A stretch of DNA of 64,000 nt, taken from NCBI RefSeq assembly GCF_013167455.1, contig NZ_CP038328.1, one strand, 5' to 3'. Below the pieces are notes generated by a model, which saw only the letters and a program-made list of their open reading frames with translations, was not told where the DNA came from and did not search any database. Within the stretch, counting starts at the first letter, position 1. The number at the start of each line of letters is the position of its first letter. Position numbers and translations under genes: made by a program. This document shows positions 1 to 63,046 of the stretch, piece by piece. The DNA is from Escherichia coli O157:H7. GTDB lineage: Bacteria; Pseudomonadota; Gammaproteobacteria; Enterobacterales; Enterobacteriaceae.

Positions 1-126
1 CATAATCTGGTATTCCGAAGGAATGCGATCGTCTTCCACCAGATCTCCGGTATAAATACTTTCTCTTATCCACTCCACCACTTGTTGATAGAGCGGTATT
101 TGTGACGACTTACTTAATGATTTCAT
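1..126 (-). CDS. GntR-family HTH transcriptional regulator, N-terminal 42 codons only (gene runs off the window start)
   Basis: Reverse complement of 1..126 begins with ATG (124..126) and translates MKSLSKSSQIPLYQQVVEWIRESIYTGDLVEDDRIPSEYQIM, a typical GntR-type winged-helix N-terminus. Absent from the ORF track because no stop lies inside the window. Confidence 0.4.
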   Translation of the reverse strand, partial: MKSLSKSSQIPLYQQVVEWIRESIYTGDLVEDDRIPSEYQIM

Positions 127-324
127 GGCGCGCACCTGAACATTTACAGTTGTCTATGGACAATCATGGACAACTTCAAGCGTATAGTAGGTGAACGGGA
201 GAAAAAGAGGATCGAAGCGTCTCACATTTTGAGGGACCAAATCGTGATCAAAAAAATGTGACGTGAGTCGATATTTGTCAGAAGTTTACTGCGCCGTAAG
301 GAAATAACGGCGCGTTGGTAGGTG

Positions 325-3128
<2,804 letters not shown>

Positions 3129-3132
<4 letters not shown>

Positions 3133-4073
3133 GCGTGCGCTCCTTCATGACGACGAATGCGTGGGTCCAGTGCGGCGTTGAGCAAATCGACAATCAAATT
3201 ACAGACCACAAAAACCACCACCATCATCAGCGTAAAGCACTGGATCACCGGATAGTCACGGTTAAAAATCGCCGACACCGCATAGCGCCCGACGCCGGGC
3301 CAGGTAAAGATGTTTTCGATAATCATCGTCCCGCCAATCAGTTCGCCAATGTGCATCCCCACGGCGGTGATCATCGGCAGCGAGGCATTGCGCAGAATAT
3401 GACGACGCTCGGTCTGTTTGTCATTCAGGCCGCGTAGCCGCGCCCAGGTGACGTGACGCTGACCGGCGACGTCCAGCATACTGGCGCGCAGCAGCCGTGC
3501 GTTAATCGCCAGCGACATAAAGGCAATGGAAACCGCAGGCAAAATGATGTGCTGCCAGCCGCCGTAGCCCATCGCGGGTAGCCATTGCAGATACACCGAA
3601 AACGCCATCACCAGTAAAAATGCCAGCCAGAAGTTGGGCATCGACACGCCGAGAAACGCGATGAAACGTACGGCGAAATCCGGCAGACGGTCACGATGGC
3701 GCGCCGCCCAGATACCGAGCGGTACGGAAGTGAGCAGAATTAATACCAGCGCCGCACCCGCCAGTTCCAGCGTGGCGGGCAGGAAGTTCAGCATATCGTC
3801 CAGCACCGGGCGCTGCGTGGCAAATGAGATGCCGAAATCAAGATGCAGCGCCTTCCACAACCAGGTGCCGTACTGCACATACAGCGGCTGATCCAGTCCC
3901 AGCATGGTGCGGGTAGAGGCCAGCATCTCCGGCGTCGGCGGCAGGTTAGACAGACGCAAATAATCGAGCGCCGGGTCGCCGGTACCGAGGCGCAGCATCA
4001 GAAAAATGATCACCGAGGCGGCGAGCACCATCGGGATCAGCAGCAGAAAGCGGCGTAATACGTAACGCAACAT
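3129..4073 (-). CDS. nikB: Nickel ABC transporter permease NikB
   Basis: 314-aa DppB/OppB-type permease; tightly packed in the operon. Confidence 0.93.
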
Positions 4074-5647
4074 TAAGGTTTCACCGGTTTAATCTGTTCG
4101 AACGGAATTTCGGTGGCGATCGGCGCGTAGGGGATGTTACCCAGCTCCGGTTTTGATACCACCATCATTGAGATGTAACTGATAGGCAGATAAACCGCCT
4201 CGTCATGCAGACGGGTCAGAATGTCGCGATACAGTGCCTGACGTTGTGCTTCGTCATGGGTCGCCAGCACTTCGCCGATCTCTTTATCAATCAGCGGCTT
4301 GTCGGCTAATCCTTGCTGTGCCTGGAAGTCAGCGTGCGACGGTACGCGCATTGAACTCAGGAAGGCGTGTGGATCGTATGGCGCGCCCCAGGTGCGGTGG
4401 AAAATCATGCCAAAACGACCGTCGCGCTGACGCGCATAGATACTGCTCTCTTCTTCGCCAATCAGCGAGACATCTGCGCCAATCTGGCGCATATCAGCCT
4501 GAATGATTTCCGCCATCGATTTGCTTAACGCATCGGTGCCGATGAACGAAAGTTCAATGTGCAGCGGCTGACCATTTTTCTCGCGGATGTCTTTGCCCGC
4601 AGGCAGCGTCCAACCGGCTTTTTCCAGCAACGCTTTCGCTTTCTGCGGATCGTACTGGCGCGGTTTCAGGCCGAGGTTGGCGTAGGGCACAGAAGGGGCA
4701 AACAGGGTGTCGGCGACCTGCTGGGTGCCATACAACGCGTTATCAATCAGCGATTTTTTGTTTACCGCGTAATTAAGAGCTTCACGTACTGCCAGCTCAT
4801 TGGTGGGGGCTTTGGCGGTATTAAGCGCCAGCATCACGGTTTCGATCGGCTGTGACAGTTGGGTATGGTAAGCCGGGTTCTGGCTAAAGCGGGCGAAGGT
4901 ATCGAGCGGTAATAACCCTTCGTTTCCGTACAGCAGGTCGATATCGCCAGTTTCAAACGCCACCGCGCGGGTAGTCGGGTCTGGGATGACGTTAAAAGTG
5001 ATCTTCTTAATTGCCGGCTTTTCGCCCCAGTAGTTTTCGTTACGGACGAAGACATCGTACTGATTCAGTTTCGATTCCTGCAAAACCCACGGTCCGGTGC
5101 CAATCGGCGCTTTAATCCCGTTCATGGTTTCATGGTTTTTAAACTGCGAGGGGGCGATAAAGCGGAAAGGGCGCGGCAGGGCCAGTTCTTGCAGGAAAGG
5201 ATAGTAGGCGCTTTTCAGGGTGATTTGCAGCTCTGTTTTACTGAGTGCTTTAACATCAACAATCTGGTTTGCCAGCTCCAGCCAGGCGTGACGTTGACGG
5301 TTATCGAGCACTGCGCGGAAGTTTTCTGCCGCCGCCTCTGCATCAAACGGTTCGCCGTTAGAGAATTTCACGTCATCACGCAGGGTGAAGGTCCAGATTT
5401 TACCATCTTCTGAATGAGTCCAGCTTTTTGCCAGCCACGGGATCACCGAACCGTCTGCCTGATATTTCACCAATGGTTCATAAACCATGCTCTGGGCGAA
5501 CATCTGGTTAGGCGTGTAAAGGTGCGGGTTTAGTGGCCCGACATTCACCGGCCAGGCGGTGGTGATTTCATCTGGTGCAGCGGCATGGACGATAAAAGAC
5601 GCACAAGCCAGCAGCGCAAATAGAGTGCGGCGGAGTGTGGAGAGCAT
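4073..5647 (-). CDS. nikA: Periplasmic nickel-binding protein NikA
   Basis: 524 aa with N-terminal signal peptide; family-5 solute-binding protein; first gene of the nik operon. Confidence 0.93.
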
Positions 5648-30425: not shown

Positions 30426-31922
30426 ATGGCGAAAGAAAAAAAACGTGGCTTTTTTTCCTGGCTGGGCTTTGGTCAAAAAGAGCAGACCCCGGAAAAAGAG
30501 ACAGAAGTTCAGAATGAACAAACGGTTGTAGAAGAAATCGTTCAGGCGCAAGAGCCTGTGAAGGCTTCTGAACAAGCCGTCGAAGAGCAGCCGCAGGCGC
30601 ATACTGAGGCCGAGGCGGAAACTTTTGCTGCCGACGTTGTGGAAGTCACTGAACAGGTTGCTGAAAATGAAAAAGCGCAGCCTGAAGCGGAAGTCGTTGC
30701 ACAACCGGAACCGGTCGTAGAAGAAACGCCGGAGCCAGTGGCTATCGAACGTGAAGAGCTGCCGTTGCCGGAAGACGTCAACGCCGAAGAGGTTTCGCCA
30801 GAAGAGTGGCAGGCTGAAGCGGAAACCGTAGAGATTGTCGAAGCGGCGGAAGAAGAAGCGGCTAAAGAAGAAATCACCGACGAAGAGCTGGAAGCACAGG
30901 CGCTGGCTGCCGAAGCAGCAGAAGAGGCGGTGATGGTGGTTCCTCCGGCAGAAGAAGAGCAGCCGGTGGAAGAAATCGCTCAGGAGCAGGAAAAACCGAC
31001 CAAAGAAGGTTTTTTCGCGCGCCTGAAACGCAGCCTGTTAAAAACCAAAGAAAATCTCGGTTCCGGATTTATCAGCCTGTTCCGCGGTAAAAAAATCGAC
31101 GATGATCTGTTTGAGGAGCTGGAAGAGCAGCTTTTGATCGCCGATGTGGGCGTGGAAACCACACGTAAAATTATCACCAATCTGACGGAAGGCGCATCCC
31201 GCAAGCAGCTTCGTGATGCCGAGGCGCTCTATGGCCTGCTGAAAGAAGAGATGGGTGAGATTCTGGCGAAAGTCGATGAGCCGCTGAATGTTGAAGGTAA
31301 AACGCCGTTCGTGATCCTGATGGTGGGCGTCAACGGTGTGGGTAAAACCACGACGATTGGTAAGCTGGCACGTCAGTTTGAGCAGCAGGGTAAATCGGTG
31401 ATGCTGGCGGCGGGCGATACTTTCCGTGCAGCAGCGGTTGAACAGCTTCAGGTCTGGGGGCAGCGCAACAATATTCCGGTGATTGCCCAGCATACCGGGG
31501 CGGATTCCGCCTCTGTTATCTTCGACGCCATTCAGGCGGCTAAAGCGCGTAATATCGACGTCCTGATTGCCGATACCGCCGGACGCCTGCAGAACAAATC
31601 GCACCTGATGGAAGAGTTGAAGAAAATCGTCCGCGTGATGAAGAAACTCGACGTTGAAGCGCCGCATGAAGTTATGCTGACTATCGATGCCAGCACCGGG
31701 CAGAACGCGGTAAGCCAGGCCAAACTGTTCCATGAAGCCGTTGGCTTAACCGGCATCACGCTAACGAAACTGGACGGCACGGCGAAAGGCGGGGTAATTT
31801 TCTCGGTGGCTGACCAGTTTGGTATCCCTATCCGCTACATTGGTGTCGGCGAACGTATTGAGGATTTGCGTCCGTTTAAGGCGGACGACTTTATAGAGGC
31901 ACTTTTTGCCCGAGAGGATTAA
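30426..31922 (+). CDS. ftsY: Signal-recognition-particle receptor FtsY
   Basis: 498 aa; acidic repetitive N-terminal domain followed by an SRP GTPase domain (GVNGVGKTTT, DTAGR). Confidence 0.95.
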   Translation: MAKEKKRGFFSWLGFGQKEQTPEKETEVQNEQTVVEEIVQAQEPVKASEQAVEEQPQAHTEAEAETFAADVVEVTEQVAENEKAQPEAEVVAQPEPVVEETPEPVAIEREELPLPEDVNAEEVSPEEWQAEAETVEIVEAAEEEAAKEEITDEELEAQALAAEAAEEAVMVVPPAEEEQPVEEIAQEQEKPTKEGFFARLKRSLLKTKENLGSGFISLFRGKKIDDDLFEELEEQLLIADVGVETTRKIITNLTEGASRKQLRDAEALYGLLKEEMGEILAKVDEPLNVEGKTPFVILMVGVNGVGKTTTIGKLARQFEQQGKSVMLAAGDTFRAAAVEQLQVWGQRNNIPVIAQHTGADSASVIFDAIQAAKARNIDVLIADTAGRLQNKSHLMEELKKIVRVMKKLDVEAPHEVMLTIDASTGQNAVSQAKLFHEAVGLTGITLTKLDGTAKGGVIFSVADQFGIPIRYIGVGERIEDLRPFKADDFIEALFARED

Positions 31923-36539: not shown

Positions 36540-37067
36540 ATGGATGATCTGACGATAGAGATTCTGACCGATGATGCAGATTATGATCTACAGCGATTCG
36601 ACTGCGGCGAGGAAGCGTTAAATCTCTTTCTGACGACACATCTCGTTCGTCAACATCGCAACAAAATTCTGCGAGCGTATATCCTTTGTCGCAACACTCC
36701 AGAACGTCAGGTGCTGGGATATTACACATTATGCGGCAGTTGTTTTGAACGAGCCGCATTGCCCTCGAAATCGAAACAGAAAAAAATTCCCTACAAAAAT
36801 ATTCCCAGCGTTACTCTTGGGCGTCTGGCAATTGATCGTTCATTACAGGGGCAGGGATGGGGAGCAACACTGGTTGCTCATGCCATGAAAGTCGTCTGGT
36901 CAGCCTCTTTAGCGGTAGGTATTCACGGTCTTTTTGTCGAGGCGCTGAATGAAAAAGCCCATACGTTTTATAAATCGCTGGGCTTTATCCCTTTAGTCGG
37001 GGAAAACGAAAATGCGTTATTTTTCCCAACCAAATCCATTGAACTGCTTTTTACACAGAGCGATTAA
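36540..37067 (+). CDS. GNAT-fold acetyltransferase toxin (TacT/AtaT/ItaT-family tRNA-acetylating toxin)
   Basis: 175 aa; motifs FDCGEEALNLFL and LGRLAIDRSLQGQGWGATL are typical of aminoacyl-tRNA-acetylating GNAT toxins. Confidence 0.8.
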   Translation: MDDLTIEILTDDADYDLQRFDCGEEALNLFLTTHLVRQHRNKILRAYILCRNTPERQVLGYYTLCGSCFERAALPSKSKQKKIPYKNIPSVTLGRLAIDRSLQGQGWGATLVAHAMKVVWSASLAVGIHGLFVEALNEKAHTFYKSLGFIPLVGENENALFFPTKSIELLFTQSD

Positions 37068-37447
37068 CGCTTCTCCCAGCCGCCCTGCTGTGCCGTAAAT
37101 CCCAGTGCCTGCATAAACGCCGTCATCACACCGCGATCTTCCACGCCTGCATCCGCCATCCACCAGCATGAAACGCCAGGATTGTTACGCAAAACCTCTT
37201 CCAGCAGATATTGCCCCACACCGCGACGTCGAGTGACTTCCCGCACGCGCAGGGAATCCAGTGCCCCCTCGGTGCCGCTTAAGGTTACCCGCACGGCAGC
37301 AAGCAGGCGCTCGTTAAAACGCGCGGCGTAGATGCGGTGGTTATCGTCAACCTGTAAAGAGGAAGGGGAATACTCCGGCCAGATCTTTTGCAGGTCAATC
37401 CGGTCCTGGTCGCTAAATTTTTCTAATCGAATGATGGTCAGCTTCAT
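37064..37447 (-). CDS. panZ: PanD maturation factor PanZ (PanM/YhhK; GNAT fold)
   Basis: 127 aa matching PanZ; its 3' end overlaps the toxin gene's 3' end by 4 bp (convergent). Confidence 0.85.
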   Translation of the reverse strand: MKLTIIRLEKFSDQDRIDLQKIWPEYSPSSLQVDDNHRIYAARFNERLLAAVRVTLSGTEGALDSLRVREVTRRRGVGQYLLEEVLRNNPGVSCWWMADAGVEDRGVMTAFMQALGFTAQQGGWEKR

Positions 37448-37870
37448 GGGTAACCCGTGTAAATCACAAAAGTGGAACCAGTGTAGCGAAATAATTTAAT
37501 CGGAGGCTTTCTCTTTTTTATTTCTTTTGGCAGGTGATTAATTTCTTAACAGCAATAATTACAAAGTTAAAACATTAGAGAATGAAAAATACCCAGCATA
37601 ATCCCCTGAATGGTAGTGAATTATTCCGCCCTTTGTGCCGTTATTTTATGCTGACAAAGGCACTTTTTTCTGTTTATCTATCAATAAATTCAGAATATTA
37701 TCTGTTCTTAATCGACTGAAAAATAGGGACTTTAATCGCTATTATCACAAAATACTGCGCTAAACCCTTAATCAGACAGGCAAAAACAGTGCAGTATAAA
37801 AAAAGAACAGTCTGATTTGTTAACACATAAAAACAAAGCAACACAACATCACGAATGGGGATTTTTGACT

Positions 37871-41228: not shown

Positions 41229-41992
41229 GTCAGCCATTATTATCTGTTAACGGCCTGATGATGCGCTTCGGCGGCCTGCTGGCTGTGAATAACGTCAATC
41301 TTGAATTGTACCCGCAGGAGATCGTCTCGTTAATCGGTCCTAACGGTGCCGGAAAAACCACGGTCTTTAACTGCCTGACCGGATTCTACAAACCCACCGG
41401 CGGCACTATTTTACTGCGCGATCAGCATCTGGAGGGTTTGCCGGGGCAGCAAATCGCCCGCATGGGCGTGGTGCGTACCTTCCAGCATGTGCGTCTGTTC
41501 CGCGAAATGACGGTAATTGAAAACCTGCTGGTGGCGCAGCATCAGCAACTGAAAACCGGGCTGTTCTCTGGCCTGTTGAAAACGCCTTCTTTCCGTCGCG
41601 CCCAAAGTGAAGCGCTCGACCGCGCCGCCACCTGGCTTGAGCGCATTGGTTTGCTGGAACACGCCAACCGTCAGGCGAGTAACCTGGCCTACGGTGACCA
41701 GCGCCGTCTGGAGATTGCCCGCTGCATGGTGACGCAGCCGGAGATTTTAATGATCGACGAACCTGCGGCAGGTCTTAACCCGAAAGAAACGAAAGAGCTG
41801 GATGAGCTGATTGCCGAACTGCGCAATCATCACAACACCACTATCTTGTTGATTGAACACGATATGAAGCTGGTGATGGGAATTTCGGACCGAATTTACG
41901 TGGTCAATCAGGGGACGCCGCTGGCAAACGGTACGCCGGAGCAAATCCGTAATAACCCGGACGTGATCCGTGCCTATTTAGGTGAGGCATAA
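41225..41992 (+). CDS. livG: Branched-chain amino-acid ABC ATPase LivG
   Basis: 255 aa; Walker [10 protein letters not shown]. Confidence 0.95.
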
Positions 41993-48147: not shown

Positions 48148-48887
48148 GTAACTGGCCTTATCCCCGCATCGTCGCCCACCGTGGCGGCGGTAAACTGGCC
48201 CCGGAAAACACCCTGGCGGCAATCGACGTCGGGGCAAAATACGGTCATAAGATGATCGAATTTGACGCGAAGTTGTCGAAAGATGGCGAAATCTTCCTGC
48301 TCCATGACGACAATCTCGAACGTACCAGCAACGGCTGGGGCGTCGCGGGTGAACTGAACTGGCAGGATTTACTACGTGTGGATGCAGGCAGTTGGTACGG
48401 CAAAGCGTTTAAAGGTGAGCCGCTGCCGTTGCTTTCGCAGGTGGCGGAACGCTGTCGCGAACATGGGATGATGGCGAATATCGAAATCAAACCCACCACT
48501 GGCACTGGGCCATTAACGGGCAAAATGGTGGCGCTGGCGGCACGCGAGCTGTGGGCCGGTATGACGCCGCCGCTACTGTCATCGTTTGAGATTGATGCTT
48601 TAGAAGCCGCACAACAGGCAGTACCAGAACTGCCGCGCGGTTTGTTGCTGGATGAGTGGCGCGACGACTGGCGAGAACTGACCGCGCGGCTGGGCTGCGT
48701 CTCTATTCATCTCAATCATAAGTTGCTCGATAAAGCGCGAGTGATGCAGTTGAAAGACGCCGGATTACGGATTCTGGTTTATACCGTCAATAAACCCCAG
48801 CGCGCGGCAGAGTTGCTGCGCTGGGGCGTGGATTGCATCTGTACCGATGCGATTGATGTGATTGGTCCGAACTTTACGGCCCAATAG
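48144..48887 (+). CDS. ugpQ: Glycerophosphodiester phosphodiesterase UgpQ
   Basis: 247 aa; GDPD-family N-terminal motif VAHRGGG. Confidence 0.93.
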
Positions 48888-53644: not shown

Positions 53645-53734
53645 GCGATCAGGAAGACCCTCGCGGAGAACCTGAAAGCACGACATTGCTCACATTGCTT
53701 CCAGTATTACTTAGCCAGCCGGGTGCTGGCTTTT
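53645..53734 (+). ncRNA. ryhB: RyhB small RNA (Fur-repressed, Hfq-dependent iron-sparing sRNA)
   Basis: 90-nt sequence GCGATCAGGAAGACCCTCGCGGAGAACCTGAAAGCACGACATTGCTCACATTGCTTCCAGTATTACTTAGCCAGCCGGGTGCTGGCTTTT matches RyhB, including the terminal hairpin AGCCAGC/GCTGGCT plus U-run; lies between yhhY and yhhX. Confidence 0.9.
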
Positions 53735-57600: not shown

Positions 57601-58941
57601 GTGACTACATTAACGCTTGTTTTAACAGCAGTAGGGTCTGTTTTACTGCTGCTGTTTTTAGTCATGAAGGCGCGTATGCACGCTTTCCTGGCTTTAATGG
57701 TGGTGTCCATGGGGGCTGGCCTTTTTTCCGGTATGCCGCTCGATAAAATCGCAGCGACGATGGAAAAAGGGATGGGAGGCACCCTCGGCTTCCTGGCGGT
57801 GGTTGTCGCCCTGGGAGCTATGTTTGGCAAGATCTTACATGAAACCGGCGCAGTCGATCAGATTGCCGTCAAAATGCTTAAATCCTTCGGTCACAGCCGC
57901 GCGCATTATGCCATCGGCCTTGCGGGGCTGGTCTGTGCGCTACCGCTGTTCTTTGAAGTGGCGATTGTTCTGCTGATTAGCGTTGCTTTCTCAATGGCGC
58001 GCCACACCGGTACGAACCTGGTGAAGCTGGTAATCCCATTATTCGCAGGCGTGGCGGCCGCGGCGGCGTTCCTGGTGCCAGGGCCAGCGCCAATGCTGCT
58101 GGCATCGCAGATGAACGCCGATTTTGGCTGGATGATCCTGATTGGCCTGTGTGCGGCAATTCCGGGAATGATTATTGCCGGGCCGCTGTGGGGTAACTTC
58201 ATCAGCCGTTACGTTGAGCTGCATATTCCTGACGACATCAGCGAACCGCATCTCGGCGAAGGCAAAATGCCATCCTTCGGATTCAGCCTGTCGCTGATCC
58301 TGCTGCCGCTGGTGCTGGTAGGGCTGAAAACCATTGCCGCGCGTTTTGTGCCGGAAGGCTCTACCGCTTACGAATGGTTCGAGTTTATTGGTCATCCGTT
58401 TACCGCGATTCTGGTTGCTTGTCTGGTAGCGATTTATGGCCTGGCAATGCGTCAGGGCATGCCAAAAGACAAAGTGATGGAGATTTGCGGTCACGCGCTG
58501 CAACCGGCGGGGATCATTCTGCTGGTGATTGGTGCGGGCGGCGTGTTCAAACAGGTGCTGGTTGACTCTGGCGTAGGTCCGGCACTGGGCGAAGCGTTAA
58601 CCGGCATGGGCCTGCCGATTGCCATCACCTGCTTCGTGCTGGCCGCTGCAGTGCGCATCATTCAGGGTTCTGCAACCGTTGCCTGTTTAACGGCGGTGGG
58701 ACTGGTGATGCCGGTTATTGAACAACTGAACTACTCCGGTGCGCAAATGGCGGCGCTGTCGATTTGTATCGCCGGTGGTTCGATTGTTGTCAGCCACGTT
58801 AACGACGCTGGTTTCTGGTTGTTCGGTAAATTTACCGGCGCGACCGAAGCCGAAACGCTGAAAACCTGGACCATGATGGAAACCATCCTCGGCACTGTCG
58901 GTGCCATCGTTGGGATGATTGCGTTCCAGCTGTTGAGTTAA
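57601..58941 (+). CDS. gntU: Low-affinity gluconate transporter GntU (GntP family)
   Basis: 446-aa polytopic GntP-family permease with a GTG start. Confidence 0.9.
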   Translation: MTTLTLVLTAVGSVLLLLFLVMKARMHAFLALMVVSMGAGLFSGMPLDKIAATMEKGMGGTLGFLAVVVALGAMFGKILHETGAVDQIAVKMLKSFGHSRAHYAIGLAGLVCALPLFFEVAIVLLISVAFSMARHTGTNLVKLVIPLFAGVAAAAAFLVPGPAPMLLASQMNADFGWMILIGLCAAIPGMIIAGPLWGNFISRYVELHIPDDISEPHLGEGKMPSFGFSLSLILLPLVLVGLKTIAARFVPEGSTAYEWFEFIGHPFTAILVACLVAIYGLAMRQGMPKDKVMEICGHALQPAGIILLVIGAGGVFKQVLVDSGVGPALGEALTGMGLPIAITCFVLAAAVRIIQGSATVACLTAVGLVMPVIEQLNYSGAQMAALSICIAGGSIVVSHVNDAGFWLFGKFTGATEAETLKTWTMMETILGTVGAIVGMIAFQLLS

Positions 58942-58952
58942 TTACTGCGACA

Positions 58953-58995
58953 AATTACTGCGAGCTTGCTCGCAGTAATTCATTTCTCTTTTCTC
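58953..58995 (+). terminator. gntU terminator hairpin (12-bp perfect stem)
   Basis: AATTACTGCGAG-CTTG-CTCGCAGTAATT followed by a pyrimidine-rich tract. Confidence 0.6.
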
Positions 58996-59080
58996 CTCTC
59001 TTCATCTTTTTGATCTCTCTCGCAAATTTACCTGCAAATAATCCGTTCTAATCACTGCCTAAAGATCGCAGGAGATAAAG

Positions 59081-61205
59081 ATGGAAAAGCACGCAGCTGA
59101 ATTGCTTTTACAGCGGATGTTAGGAAATACCACCGCTACTTTCAGGGAAGGGCAATGGGAAGCCATAGACGCGGTGGTGAACCAACGGCGAAAACTGCTG
59201 GTTGTCCAACGCACTGGCTGGGGGAAAAGTGCTGTGTACTTCATCGCCAGTAAAATCTTCCGCGATCGCGGCGCTGGCCCGACAATTATCATCTCTCCTT
59301 TGCTTGCCCTGATGCGTAACCAGGTTGCCGCCGCTGAACGGTTAGGTATTACGGCTGAAACGTTGAATTCTACAAACAGAGAAGAATGGCAGCGCATTAG
59401 CGATAAGTTGCTGCAAGGTGAGGTCGATTGCTTGCTGGTTTCCCCGGAACGTTTGGCAAACCAGGACTTTATCGAAACGGTTTTATATCCTATAGCCGAT
59501 CATATTGGCTTGCTTGTGGTCGACGAGGCGCACTGCATCTCTGATTGGGGCCACGATTTTCGCCCGGATTACCGACGTATATTAGATATTTTGCGCAACT
59601 ACCTGCGAATACCCCTGTTCTGGGTACAACCGCGACAGCGAATAACCGTGTCGTTGAGGATATCCGTCAGCAATTGGGTGACATTGTGATTCAGCGTGGA
59701 ACGCTGGCTCGCGAAAGTTTGGCGCTTGATGCCTTAGTCTTAGGTGAACACTCATCCCGTCTGGCATGGTTAGCAACGGTTATCCCTCAGTTTTCCAAAT
59801 CGGGAATTGTTTATACCCTGACTACTCGCGATGCCGAACTTGTCGCCGAGTGGTTAAGGAAAAATGGTATCAGTGCATTTGCTTACTACAGCGGCGTGAC
59901 TTGTGAAGGCGCGGAAGATTCTAATACTGCCAGGGAATATCTGGAGCAGGCGTTGCTGGCAAATAAAATTAAAGTGCTGGTTGCGACAACGGCGCTGGGA
60001 ATGGGCTTTGACAAACCGGATTTGGGGTTTGTTATTCATTACCAGATGCCAGGTTCGATAGTTGGTTACTACTAACAGGTGGGGCGTGCCGGTCGCGGTA
60101 TCGATTCTGCTGTTGGCATACTGCTTTGCGGCAGTGAAGACCGTGCTATTCATAAATTCTTCCGTGAAAGCGCCTTTCCTGCGGAGGCGCAAATTCATGA
60201 AATACTCAACGTACTTAGCGTGAATGACGGTCTTACCTTACGAGGCATTGAACAACGGACGAATCTCCGTTATGGGCAAATAGAAAAAGCACTGAAATTA
60301 TTGGTAGCTGAAAATCCATCGCCTGTGGTGTATACCGAGAAATTATGGCGCAGAACAATTGTCAGTTTTTCTCCTGACCATGAACGAATTAACCATTTGA
60401 TGAATCAGAGAAAAAGTGAGCTGGCAGACGTTGAAAGCTATATCACGACCAAGGAGTGCAAAATGCAATTTCTGCGCCGCGCACTCGATGAGCCAGGTGC
60501 CGAACATTGTGGTAAATGTAGCAGTTGTCTTCAGCATCCGTTGTTGTCGCCCGACATTGATAGCGGCTTACTCCATGCGGCAAACTTATTTATTAAACAC
60601 GCTGACCTGTCATTAAATCTCAATAAACAGGTGGCAGCTGGGGCTTTTACGCAATACGGATTTAAAGGGAACTTGCCTGCGAGTTTACAAGGATCTACGG
60701 GGCGAATCCTTTCTCGTTGGGGATATTCCGGGTGGGGAAAGCAGGTAGCACAGGAGAAAAAAACGGGGCGATTCAGTGATGAACTGGTGGAGGCATGTGC
60801 GGAAATGGTTCGCCAACGCTGGAATCCGCATCCTGAACCAACCTGGGTATGCTGCGTTCCTTCATTAAAGCACCTCGACCTGGTTCCTGATTTTGAAAGC
60901 ACCTCGACCTGGTTCCTGATTTTGCCCGGCGACTGGCGGCGAAACTTGGCTTACCTTTTATTGATGCCATTGAAAAAGTCGTGGACAATCCACCGCAGAA
61001 AATGCAGCAAAACCGTTTCCACCAGTGTCAAAATCTCGACGGGGCGTTTGTGATTACCCCTCCTTTGATGCCTGGTCCGGCGTTGCTGGTTGACGATATC
61101 GTGGATTCTGCATGGACGCTGACAGTTCTAACAGCACTGTTACGCCAGGCAGGTTGCCCGACGGTTTATCCTCTTGCCCTTGCTTCTACCTCGGTAAAAA
61201 ATTGA
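59081..61205 (+). pseudogene. Disrupted RecQ-family DNA helicase fused to a C-terminal ComF-like phosphoribosyltransferase domain
   Basis: Three ORF-track fragments belong to one gene: Walker A GWGKS and RecQ motifs [19 protein letters not shown] and GYY*QVGRAGRG, a Cys-rich RQC-like region, and a PRTase motif ALLVDDIVDSAWT at the C-terminus. Lesions: frameshift near 59597..59612, in-frame TAA at 60073..60075, 29-bp tandem duplication at 60896..60924. Reconstructed ancestral product about 698 aa. Confidence 0.75.
60867..60924 (+). repeat. Perfect 29-bp tandem duplication inside the RecQ-like gene
   Basis: AAAGCACCTCGACCTGGTTCCTGATTTTG occurs twice back to back (60867..60895 and 60896..60924); 29 is not a multiple of 3, so the reading frame shifts. 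Confidence 0.95.
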
Positions 61206-62407
61206 TGAATCTTTCAGCCAATGCACAAGCAACTCTCCTGCTAACCAGCGATTTTTCTCGCGCGGCGGCGAGTAAGTATAAACCTCTTAGTAATAGTGAA
61301 TGGGGGAAGTTTGCATTATGGCTGAAGCACCAACGTATCAGTCCCGCCGAGCTTCTGGTGCCGCAACCGCAAGAGAAACTTACAGGCTGGAGCGATCCGC
61401 GTATTTCTCAGGAGCGTATTCTTGGCTTGCTGGCGCGTGGTCATAGTCTGGCGTTGGCGGTAGATAAGTGGCAACGCGCCGGTTTATGGATCTTAACCCG
61501 CGGAGATGCTGATTATCCCGTTCGCTTGAAAAACCGATTGCGAACGGATGCACCTCCCGTTTTATTTGGCTGCGGGAATAAAGCATTACTGCAAGCGGAA
61601 GGTATGGCGATTGTTGGCTCGCGAGATGCTCCGACTGACGATTTGCGCTATACCCAACAACTGGCCGCGAAACTGGCCCAACAGGGGATTTGCGTTATCT
61701 CTGGTGGTGCGCGAGGTATTGATGAATGTGCAATGGCGTCGGCACTGGAGGCCGGGGGAACTGCCGTTGGCGTATTAGCTGATAGCTTGTTAAAAACGAG
61801 TACGTTAGTGAAATGGCGTGAAGGGCTTATAGCAGGCAACCTGGTGTTGATTTCGCCGTTTTACCCAGAGGTACGTTTCACCGTCGGCAATGCGATGGCG
61901 CGAAATAAATATATTTATTGCCTTGCTGAAAGCGCAATGGTTGTACGTGCGGGAATGACCGGTGGAACGATAACCGGGGCGATGGAGGCATTAAAACATC
62001 AGTGGCTGCCTGTGCAGGTTAAACCAAATCAGGATATGCAATCAGCCAATTCACGATTAGTAGAAAATGGGGCGTCATGGAGTGCTGAACAGGCTGAGAA
62101 TGTGACGATCAGACTGCCAGACGTTCCTGGGCTGATGTATGACAGAGCACTCCGTAACGCTCAACCAGAACTGTTTTCGCTGCATGAAGATGACGCAAAT
62201 TACGCAGTAATGCCCGCGTATACGCCTGTCGATTTTTATCAACTCTTTGTGGCGGAACTGGCGATCCTTGCAAAGGAATCGATAAGTATTGAAAGGCTGG
62301 CGTCTTGTACTGGTTTAACCATCGAACAAATTAGTGTGTGGCTGAACCGCGCAGAAGAAGAGGGAAGGGTTATCCGATTGGGCGAAGGTCATTATCAGTT
62401 CAGGTAA
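61205..62407 (+). CDS. DprA/Smf-family (SLOG Rossmann) protein, a paralogue of the DNA-processing protein DprA
   Basis: 400 aa from the ATG at 61205, which shares a base with the TGA stop of the upstream helicase frame; Rossmann motifs AIVGSRDAPTDD and VISGGARGIDE; C-terminal winged-helix-like tail. Confidence 0.75.
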   Translation: MNLSANAQATLLLTSDFSRAAASKYKPLSNSEWGKFALWLKHQRISPAELLVPQPQEKLTGWSDPRISQERILGLLARGHSLALAVDKWQRAGLWILTRGDADYPVRLKNRLRTDAPPVLFGCGNKALLQAEGMAIVGSRDAPTDDLRYTQQLAAKLAQQGICVISGGARGIDECAMASALEAGGTAVGVLADSLLKTSTLVKWREGLIAGNLVLISPFYPEVRFTVGNAMARNKYIYCLAESAMVVRAGMTGGTITGAMEALKHQWLPVQVKPNQDMQSANSRLVENGASWSAEQAENVTIRLPDVPGLMYDRALRNAQPELFSLHEDDANYAVMPAYTPVDFYQLFVAELAILAKESISIERLASCTGLTIEQISVWLNRAEEEGRVIRLGEGHYQFR

Positions 62408-62410
62408 TAA

Positions 62411-62446
62411 AACAGGTGCCGCGTCTGGTTGTGTGCAGCACCTGTT
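62411..62446. terminator. Hairpin between convergent DprA-like gene and yhgN
   Basis: Perfect 9-bp stem AACAGGTGC/GCACCTGTT with an 18-nt loop between the two stop codons. Confidence 0.45.
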
Positions 62447-62452
62447 TGAACC

Positions 62453-63046
62453 TTACCCCTTCATCCACATTCGAATGCCGTCGAGGAACATCTGGGTTGC
62501 CATCATCACCAGAATCAATCCCATCAGGCGTTCAAGTGCGTTCACCCCTTTCTCGCCCAGCAGACGTAAAAATAGCGAAGACTGTAGCAGGATGACAAAG
62601 GTGCCGCCCCAGGCCAGCAGCAGAGCAATCACCAGATGTCCCATCTGATTCGGGTACTGATGAGACAACAACATCAGCGTGGCGAGAATAGTTGGCCCGG
62701 CGACCAGCGGAATTGCCAGCGGCACGATAAATGGCTCTTCACCTGCCGGAAGCCCGCTGCTATTTCCTGAAGCGCTGGGGAAAATCATCTTAATGGCAAT
62801 TAGAAACAGAATGATGCCGCCAGAAATGGAGACGGTTTCTGCTCGCAGGCTGAGAAATGCCAGAATTTTCTCACCCGCAAACAGGAACACCAGCATCACC
62901 AGGAGAGCAATAAGCAACTCTCGCACCATGATTGCCCGCCGTCTTTTCGGTTCAGTATGTTTCAGTACGGACATGAAAATAGGTAGGTTTCCGAGCGGAT
63001 CCATAATCAGGATCAATAAAACTGCTGCAGAAATGATTTCATTCAT
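62453..63046 (-). CDS. yhgN: MarC-family inner-membrane protein YhgN
   Basis: 197-aa polytopic membrane protein matching YhgN; divergent from asd. Confidence 0.88.
   Translation of the reverse strand: MNEIISAAVLLILIMDPLGNLPIFMSVLKHTEPKRRRAIMVRELLIALLVMLVFLFAGEKILAFLSLRAETVSISGGIILFLIAIKMIFPSASGNSSGLPAGEEPFIVPLAIPLVAGPTILATLMLLSHQYPNQMGHLVIALLLAWGGTFVILLQSSLFLRLLGEKGVNALERLMGLILVMMATQMFLDGIRMWMKG

Follow-up and report, generated by a model that had tools for sequence, protein, structure and literature searches.

A 29-bp tandem duplication in the rqlH/psyrT pseudogene of Escherichia coli O157:H7, the youngest of three lesions in a decayed toxin-antitoxin pair

Results

The rqlHI locus

The window analysed in this study, by which we mean the whole 64-kb stretch of Escherichia coli O157:H7 DNA, carries between gntU and yhgN an island with two genes, a RecQ-like helicase gene that is broken into pieces and an intact DprA-like gene directly downstream. 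A 3.6-kb query around the tandem repeat described below is 100% identical to O157:H7 chromosomes including those of EDL933, Sakai, TW14359 and EC4115. Of 5,426 complete E. coli genomes, 1650 contain the helicase gene and the others do not; K-12 MG1655 lacks both rqlH and rqlI (PMC4670107). The genes of the locus are as follows.

57601..58941: gntU, the upstream neighbour of the rqlHI island
58942..62452: rqlHI island, between gntU and yhgN
59081..61205, plus strand: rqlH/psyrT, RecQ-like helicase-PRTase toxin pseudogene (ORF list, RefSeq/PGAP, profile matches)
59081..59689, 59545..60075, 60079..61053 and 60981..61205, plus strand: the four pieces of rqlH in the six-frame ORF list
61205..62407, plus strand: rqlI/psyrA, intact DprA-like antitoxin of 400 aa (PADLOC, Pfam, direct reading)
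62453..63046, minus strand: yhgN, the downstream neighbour of the island

The pseudogene state of rqlH is already known from the RefSeq/PGAP label of the gene in EDL933 ('RecQ family ATP-dependent DNA helicase; frameshifted; internal stop'), and the older annotation of Sakai and EDL933 has it as the fragments ECs4281-4284 / Z4801-4803, all named 'putative ATP-dependent DNA helicase'. In the literature on these old locus tags and on O157/O55 pseudogenes we found no description of the 29-bp indel, only an ortholog table in which ECs4281-4284 / Z4801-4803 stand as helicase fragments. Downstream, the sequence read directly has the ATG of rqlI overlapping the stop codon of rqlH (TGATG). PGAP offers instead a longer ORF of 431 aa from 61112, which RefSeq names 'DNA-processing protein DprA' in EDL933 and lists as intact; we prefer the start at ATG 61205 because it fits the 400-aa RqlI, whose full length is given as residues 1-400 (PMC4670107).

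Profile searches identify both partners. An intact helicase allele aligns to positions 5-687 of the 689 in the PADLOC model of PsyrT with 1065 bits, and the protein encoded downstream matches PsyrA over its full length (671 bits, 1.5e-202). The intact allele L004 also scores 253.9 bits against the NCBIfam model TIGR00614 recQ_fam (cutoff 219.8) and carries the Pfam domains DEAD (4.9e-25) and Helicase_C (9.5e-13); the Pfam match to Pribosyltran on the intact helicase allele is weak (E = 0.0087, residues 605-683), and the RqlI protein matches DNA_processg_A (4.7e-51). PsyrTA and RqlHI have been described as one system (Millman et al., bioRxiv 10.1101/2022.05.11.491447). The O157 locus has its features, namely a RecQ-family SF2 helicase, a fused C-terminal PRTase with a PRPP loop and an adjacent downstream DprA-like partner, with the exception of an intact toxin frame, which is broken in the window by a 1-bp deletion, a TAA codon and the 29-bp duplication. 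Judged by its sequence, the locus can be assigned to RqlHI/PsyrTA as a decayed member, in which a toxin remnant stands beside an orphan antitoxin.

Three lesions in rqlH

Four intact alleles of 2097 bp (THO-010, O103:H2 12009, Nissle and UPEC-774U) served as references in an alignment with the window, O55:H7 CB9615 and one O157:H7 strain that has a single copy of the 29-bp unit. Relative to the four intact alleles, rqlH has three lesions: a 1-bp deletion, a nonsense mutation and the 29-bp duplication at codons 596-606.

59595..59596, plus strand: 1-bp deletion at codon 172 (GCGCC>GCGC), one C lost after 59595 (alignment)
60073..60075, plus strand: premature TAA at Gln332 (CAA>TAA; alignment and residue mapping)
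60867..60895, plus strand: copy 1 of the 29-bp unit AAAGCACCTCGACCTGGTTCCTGATTTTG (TRF, string identity, residue mapping)
60896..60924, plus strand: copy 2, the extra copy, a +2 frameshift after which the frame stops at 61051..61053
61092..61109, plus strand: PRPP-binding loop DDIVDS of the PRTase domain, residues 662-667 (residue mapping)

The first frameshift comes from the deletion at codon 172, after which the frame stops at 59687..59689; the Gln332 stop falls within the helicase motif ..GYYQQVGRAGR.. In silico repair of all three lesions yields a protein of 698 aa, with an identity of 99.3% to the THO-010 allele, 96.9-99.3% across the four aligned intact E. coli alleles and 98.9% to the allele of strain TR01. 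Residue mapping bears out the original prediction that the duplication shifts the frame just before the catalytic motif of the PRTase, as DDIVDS lies 3' of the duplication and is out of frame with two copies. It was likewise correct that taking out one copy restores the frame: with one copy deleted in silico, the frame opening at 60076 runs through DDIVDS to the natural stop at 61203..61205. This repair acts only from 60076 onward, and the codon-172 deletion and the TAA at 60073 persist.

The 29-bp tandem repeat

Positions 60867..60924 form a single TRF array (period 29, 2.0 copies, 100% matches, 0 indels, score 116), and direct string comparison finds the same unit in both copies, in agreement with the exact head-to-tail duplication that had been predicted here. 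It is the only strong tandem repeat in the 64-kb window, the other array found by TRF being a weak one of 15 bp x 2.2 at 30840..30872. By simple arithmetic, an exact tandem match of 29 nt is expected by chance about 2e-13 times in 64 kb (~64000 x 4^-29). Since 29 = 3x9+2, the extra copy shifts the frame. Copy 1 is the counterpart of the single copy in intact alleles, where it encodes ..L-KHLDLVPDF-A.. (residues 596-606 of 698 aa), and neither O55:H7 nor any intact allele examined has copy 2, which seven O157:H7 genomes lack as well. The notion that intact homologs might also hold two copies in frame found no support, as each of the five intact alleles sequenced has one.

The original prediction attributed the duplication to slipped-strand mispairing, and this origin is not demonstrated by the sequence. 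A microhomology-mediated event of that kind is expected to leave a direct repeat at the border, and no microhomology was found at the borders of the duplicated unit, where string comparison gives zero further matching bases, without even a single-base extension on either side. Inverted repeats near the array are weak ones only, the single-stranded fold of the repeat region is no better than that of shuffled sequence (z = 0.05), and we found no sigma-70-like promoter or terminator formed by the repeat junction; the one terminator-like match in 60600..61400 lies elsewhere than the junction and scores no better than chance. We read the 29-bp repeat as a scar left by mutation in a pseudogene rather than as a functional element.

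Distribution of the lesions across complete genomes

Each variant was counted in 5,426 complete E. coli genomes with variant-centred queries of 40-41 nt, for which a megablast match denotes the exact variant only; the two-copy total came from an 87-nt query of three tandem units.

1-bp deletion junction: 308 of 5,426 genomes, including O55:H7 CB9615
TAA at 60073: 308 of 5,426 genomes, including O55:H7
derived O157 SNP 59751C: 294 of 5,426 genomes
two repeat copies: 291 of 5,426 genomes, a total that does not separate two from three or more copies

The duplication might have been an assembly error, an objection that loses its ground here, as the same two-copy sequence in 291 independent complete assemblies is no artefact of the window. 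One-copy genomes were recovered with a 356-nt two-copy query, for which genomes with one copy and perfect flanks rank first. Such genomes number exactly 17, the difference between 308 and 291, and every two-copy genome thus lies inside the pseudogene lineage. All 17 hits span 327 nt, and no three-copy genome occurs in this top-ranked group. Ten of the 17 are of O55:H7 type (CB9615, RM12579, DEC5A/B/D/E, TB182A, USDA5905, 2013C-4465 and FDAARGOS_946), and the other seven are O157:H7 (RM19259, M1300706002, 6535WT, 6535NalR, PNUSAE008512, PNUSAE008406 and PNUSAE014970). The expectation that the repeat number may vary in the population was therefore well founded, with seven one-copy and 291 two-copy complete genomes in O157:H7. 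TR01, which is labelled O157:H7, was considered as a basal strain and rejected, as its gene is intact and its flanking alleles are different.

Order of the mutations

In the alignment, O55:H7 CB9615 has both the codon-172 deletion and the TAA at 60073 with a single repeat copy, which means that the toxin gene was dead before the duplication. At the other end of the series, the ancestral G at 59751 is found beside a two-copy repeat in PV15-279, LSU61 and F3113, and the DprA allele of PV15-279 is likewise of O55 type. In the stepwise model, typical O157:H7 (A6) arose out of clonal complex A5, the beta-glucuronidase-positive O157:H7 lineage that includes PV15-279 (PMC6256406). LSU-61 is presumed to be an intermediate form linking O55:H7 with the diverging branches of O157 (PMC7175801). 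As these early-branching strains are already two-copy, we infer that the duplication arose once, on the O157 stem. Read from these sequences, the duplication is the third and youngest lesion of rqlH, in a gene that was already dead in the ancestor of O55:H7 and O157:H7.

One-copy O157:H7 genomes

The seven one-copy O157:H7 genomes match the window at 100% over 3.6 kb, including the derived 59751C, which was confirmed directly in the four of them that were aligned; carrying this derived base, they descend from a two-copy ancestor. Three linked SNPs in a 43-kb alignment (window positions 48537 and 51132, and a third about 20 kb downstream of the locus) divide the strains into two haplotypes. One unites EC4115, which has two copies, with the one-copy strains RM19259 and PNUSAE008512; the other unites Sakai, the window and PV15-279, all two-copy, with the one-copy strains M1300706002 and PNUSAE014970. 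All four combinations of haplotype and copy number exist, and copy number has therefore changed more than once. The history that best explains these three SNPs and the published lineage placements, being the most parsimonious, is one gain followed by at least two losses. A one-copy allele might in principle also move between backgrounds by a short recombination tract.

RM19259 has in addition an aberrant stretch of roughly 700 bp downstream of the locus; a simple inversion was ruled out on test.

Discussion

The pseudogene and the RqlHI/PsyrTA system were already described, and what we add is modest: the 29-bp indel marks the O157 stem, and it is reversible and hence homoplastic. We consider it highly probable that the duplication was a third hit in a dead rqlH/psyrT gene, neutral, acquired on the O157 stem and lost again at least twice. 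According to this proposal, the codon-172 deletion and the codon-332 nonsense mutation would have destroyed the toxin gene in the common ancestor of O55:H7 and O157:H7. The 29-bp segment would then have been duplicated head to tail on the O157 stem, after the split from O55:H7 and before the divergence of the LSU-61-like intermediate, the beta-glucuronidase-positive O157:H7 and typical O157:H7. In a gene already dead, such a duplication would most likely have had no selective effect and would merely have been inherited. Precise deletion, by replication slippage or by recombination, could afterwards act on the two adjacent perfect 29-bp repeats and is the likely origin of the later one-copy states; in a few lineages of typical O157:H7 one copy appears to have been lost again, at least twice overall. 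Precise deletion between short perfect direct repeats is an easy event in E. coli.

The number of losses rests on the one-copy O157:H7 assemblies, and one could suppose that their state is an artefact of assembly or polishing in a population that is uniformly two-copy. The seven assemblies do come from only three sources (M1300706002, 6535WT and 6535NalR; the three PNUSAE genomes, with neighbouring accessions; and RM19259). Nevertheless, reads longer than 100 nt do not typically let a 58-bp array collapse cleanly by 29 bp, the loss is exact between flanks that are 100% identical, the sibling assemblies 6535WT and 6535NalR both show it, and another PNUSAE genome (H49) has two copies, so that we consider an artefact very unlikely.

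A shade less credible is the idea that the one-copy O157:H7 strains retained the ancestral state while an identical duplication arose independently several times. O55:H7 is one-copy, and the presence of one-copy strains in two haplotype backgrounds could also be produced by repeated gains. These gains would have to number at least three, in the LSU61/PV15-279/F3113, Sakai/EDL933-type and EC4115-type groups, each with identical end points; such repetition is implausible because the repeat borders offer no microhomology that could guide it, and deletion between perfect direct repeats is, as is generally understood, mechanistically far easier.

Could the duplication have been selected, either by removing the catalytic loop of a C-terminal PRTase fragment or by altering translational coupling into rqlI? 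With one copy, a frame from GTG 60079 to 61205 (about 365 aa, predicted) includes DDIVDS, and with two copies it ends at 61053 without the motif; moreover, the toxicity of RqlH resides in its PRTase domain (PMC4670107), and the rqlI start overlaps the rqlH stop. Against this, translation from the native start ends at 59689 owing to the 1-bp deletion, 390 nt short of GTG 60079, in front of which no Shine-Dalgarno sequence can be recognised on direct reading, and these two points together make expression of the C-terminal fragment unlikely. Such a PRTase fragment would in any case be neutralised by an intact antitoxin, both the one-copy revertants and all O55:H7 genomes persist, and elements outside the PRTase domain also contribute to the toxicity of RqlH (PMC4670107). 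We judge selection to be no more credible than repeated gain. Even less can be said for a reversible switch, in which the one-copy state would make the PRTase fragment of about 365 aa from GTG 60079 and couple its translation into rqlI, with both lost in the two-copy state; were this very doubtful reading true, copy number would modulate residual PRTase/RqlI activity in EHEC.

Finally, the claim that the duplication recently inactivated a functional helicase-PRTase gene, which the loss of one copy would reactivate, is refuted and can be set aside as next to impossible: without one copy the local reading frame does continue past the PRTase motif as far as the natural stop, and the copies are undiverged, but the 1-bp deletion after 59595 and the TAA at 60073 lie upstream in all 308 genomes of the lineage, including all ten one-copy O55:H7-type genomes, sequencing errors at these sites are implausible across 308 independent assemblies, and the one-copy O157:H7 strains too are still annotated 'frameshifted; internal stop'. 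A clean repeat whose removal restores a frame is thus no sign that a gene was recently alive, and the whole gene needs to be compared with intact alleles.

Both O157:H7 and O55:H7 are without a working RqlHI/PsyrTA toxin and have retained the antitoxin gene alone. Loss of the toxin with retention of the antitoxin is the textbook course of toxin-antitoxin decay, a pattern into which the intact rqlI/psyrA falls. RqlI may reportedly also have roles that are independent of RqlH, and a retained antitoxin fits this suggestion. The 29-bp indel can be sized by PCR and serves as a marker between O55:H7 (one copy) and the O157 lineages (two copies). It is unfit as a sole lineage marker because it is homoplastic, the duplication being open to loss.

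Comparison with known systems

The locus shares its gene order, domain content and chromosomal pairing with RqlHI/PsyrTA. In ExPEC F11, RqlH expressed without RqlI is genotoxic, the toxicity has been traced to the C-terminal PRTase domain (residues 509-690) and disappears when DIVD663 is mutated, and RqlI, encoded in one operon with rqlH, binds the PRTase domain and neutralises the toxicity, with elements beyond this domain adding to it (PMC4670107). The O157 motif DDIVDS (662-667) corresponds to this DIVD663 motif required for toxicity. Phage defence has been published for PsyrTA homologs (bioRxiv 10.1101/2022.05.11.491447). The key distinction is that three lesions make the O157 toxin gene a pseudogene, so that the antitoxin alone is intact; the pair cannot therefore act as a toxin-antitoxin or defence system in O157:H7. 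ShosTA and related DprA-PRTase pairs, whose relationship to PsyrTA is discussed by Millman et al. (bioRxiv 10.1101/2022.05.11.491447), likewise join a PRTase-domain toxin to a DprA-like antitoxin. Unlike RqlH, ShosT has no RecQ-like helicase, and O157 RqlI matches the PADLOC ShosA models (2.7e-27) more weakly than PsyrA (94 vs 671 bits).

The repeat itself resembles the tandem direct repeats that are known to undergo deletion, in having perfect adjacent 29-bp copies and a precise loss of one copy in a minority of strains, in at least two backgrounds; it differs in that the gain occurred without microhomology, so that its origin does not fit a simple slippage model. A resemblance to phase-variable contingency loci is also apparent, as copy number differs between close relatives (291 two-copy and seven one-copy O157:H7 genomes) and the copies shift the frame. 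However, such loci switch an otherwise intact gene, whereas the one-copy alleles of O55:H7 and O157:H7 remain pseudogenes and the two other fixed lesions in rqlH mean that copy number cannot toggle expression. In addition, only the states of one and two copies are seen, and the array consists of two copies of a long unit (29 bp) in place of the long tract of a contingency locus.

Translation start of the antitoxin gene

The pair consists of two genes in the window:
59081..61205, + strand: rqlH/psyrT, RecQ-like helicase-PRTase toxin gene (pseudogene)
61205..62407, + strand: rqlI/psyrA, DprA-like antitoxin gene (intact)

PGAP begins the DprA-like gene at ATG 61112, which gives a product of 431 aa and a 94-nt overlap with the helicase gene. 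The RqlI used in experiments has 400 aa (PMC4670107), a length that fits the ATG at 61205, where the start codon overlaps the rqlH stop as TGATG. PGAP has probably placed the start upstream of the true one.

Variation among O157:H7 genomes

Apart from the 29-bp repeat (60867..60924), the only tandem array in the 64-kb window is a 15-bp unit, GAAGCGGCGAAAGAA, at 30840..30872 (2.2 copies, 88% matches). In the 43-kb alignment, the A at position 41753 is private to the window strain; seven other O157:H7 genomes carry C there. The early-branching, beta-glucuronidase-positive PV15-279 carries several private SNPs and indels across this region, among them a 1-bp insertion opposite position 53734, and its rtcR (1..1427 of locus L015) is frameshifted. 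Downstream of glgP in RM19259, the second PstS-family gene, a truncated pseudogene by annotation, contains a stretch of about 700 bp (~36,900..37,600 of locus L010) that diverges strongly from every other O157 genome compared. This stretch is not a simple inversion of local sequence; it may have arisen by conversion or replacement from a paralog.

In TR01 (NZ_CP033605.1), which is also labelled O157:H7, rqlH is intact (2097 bp, 2350..4446 of locus L009), and the gntK, yhgN and DprA alleles are different. At the rqlHI locus TR01 lies outside the O55:H7/O157:H7 pseudogene lineage, making it either a recombinant or a strain of different genetic background.

The rqlHI pair in other strains

In the unrelated strain S1-KEN-03-A (NZ_CP145698.1, 2972540..2975836), rqlH is interrupted by an IS5-like ISKpn26 element. 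Here the toxin gene was inactivated independently, which suggests that toxin loss is recurrent in E. coli. Strain g1-11 (NZ_AP040965.1), whose record has matches at two places, holds a partial copy (71%; 2388592..2390079) annotated as "helicase-related protein" that adjoins DprA and the conjugal transfer protein TraF; a mobile element may carry a pair resembling rqlHI here.
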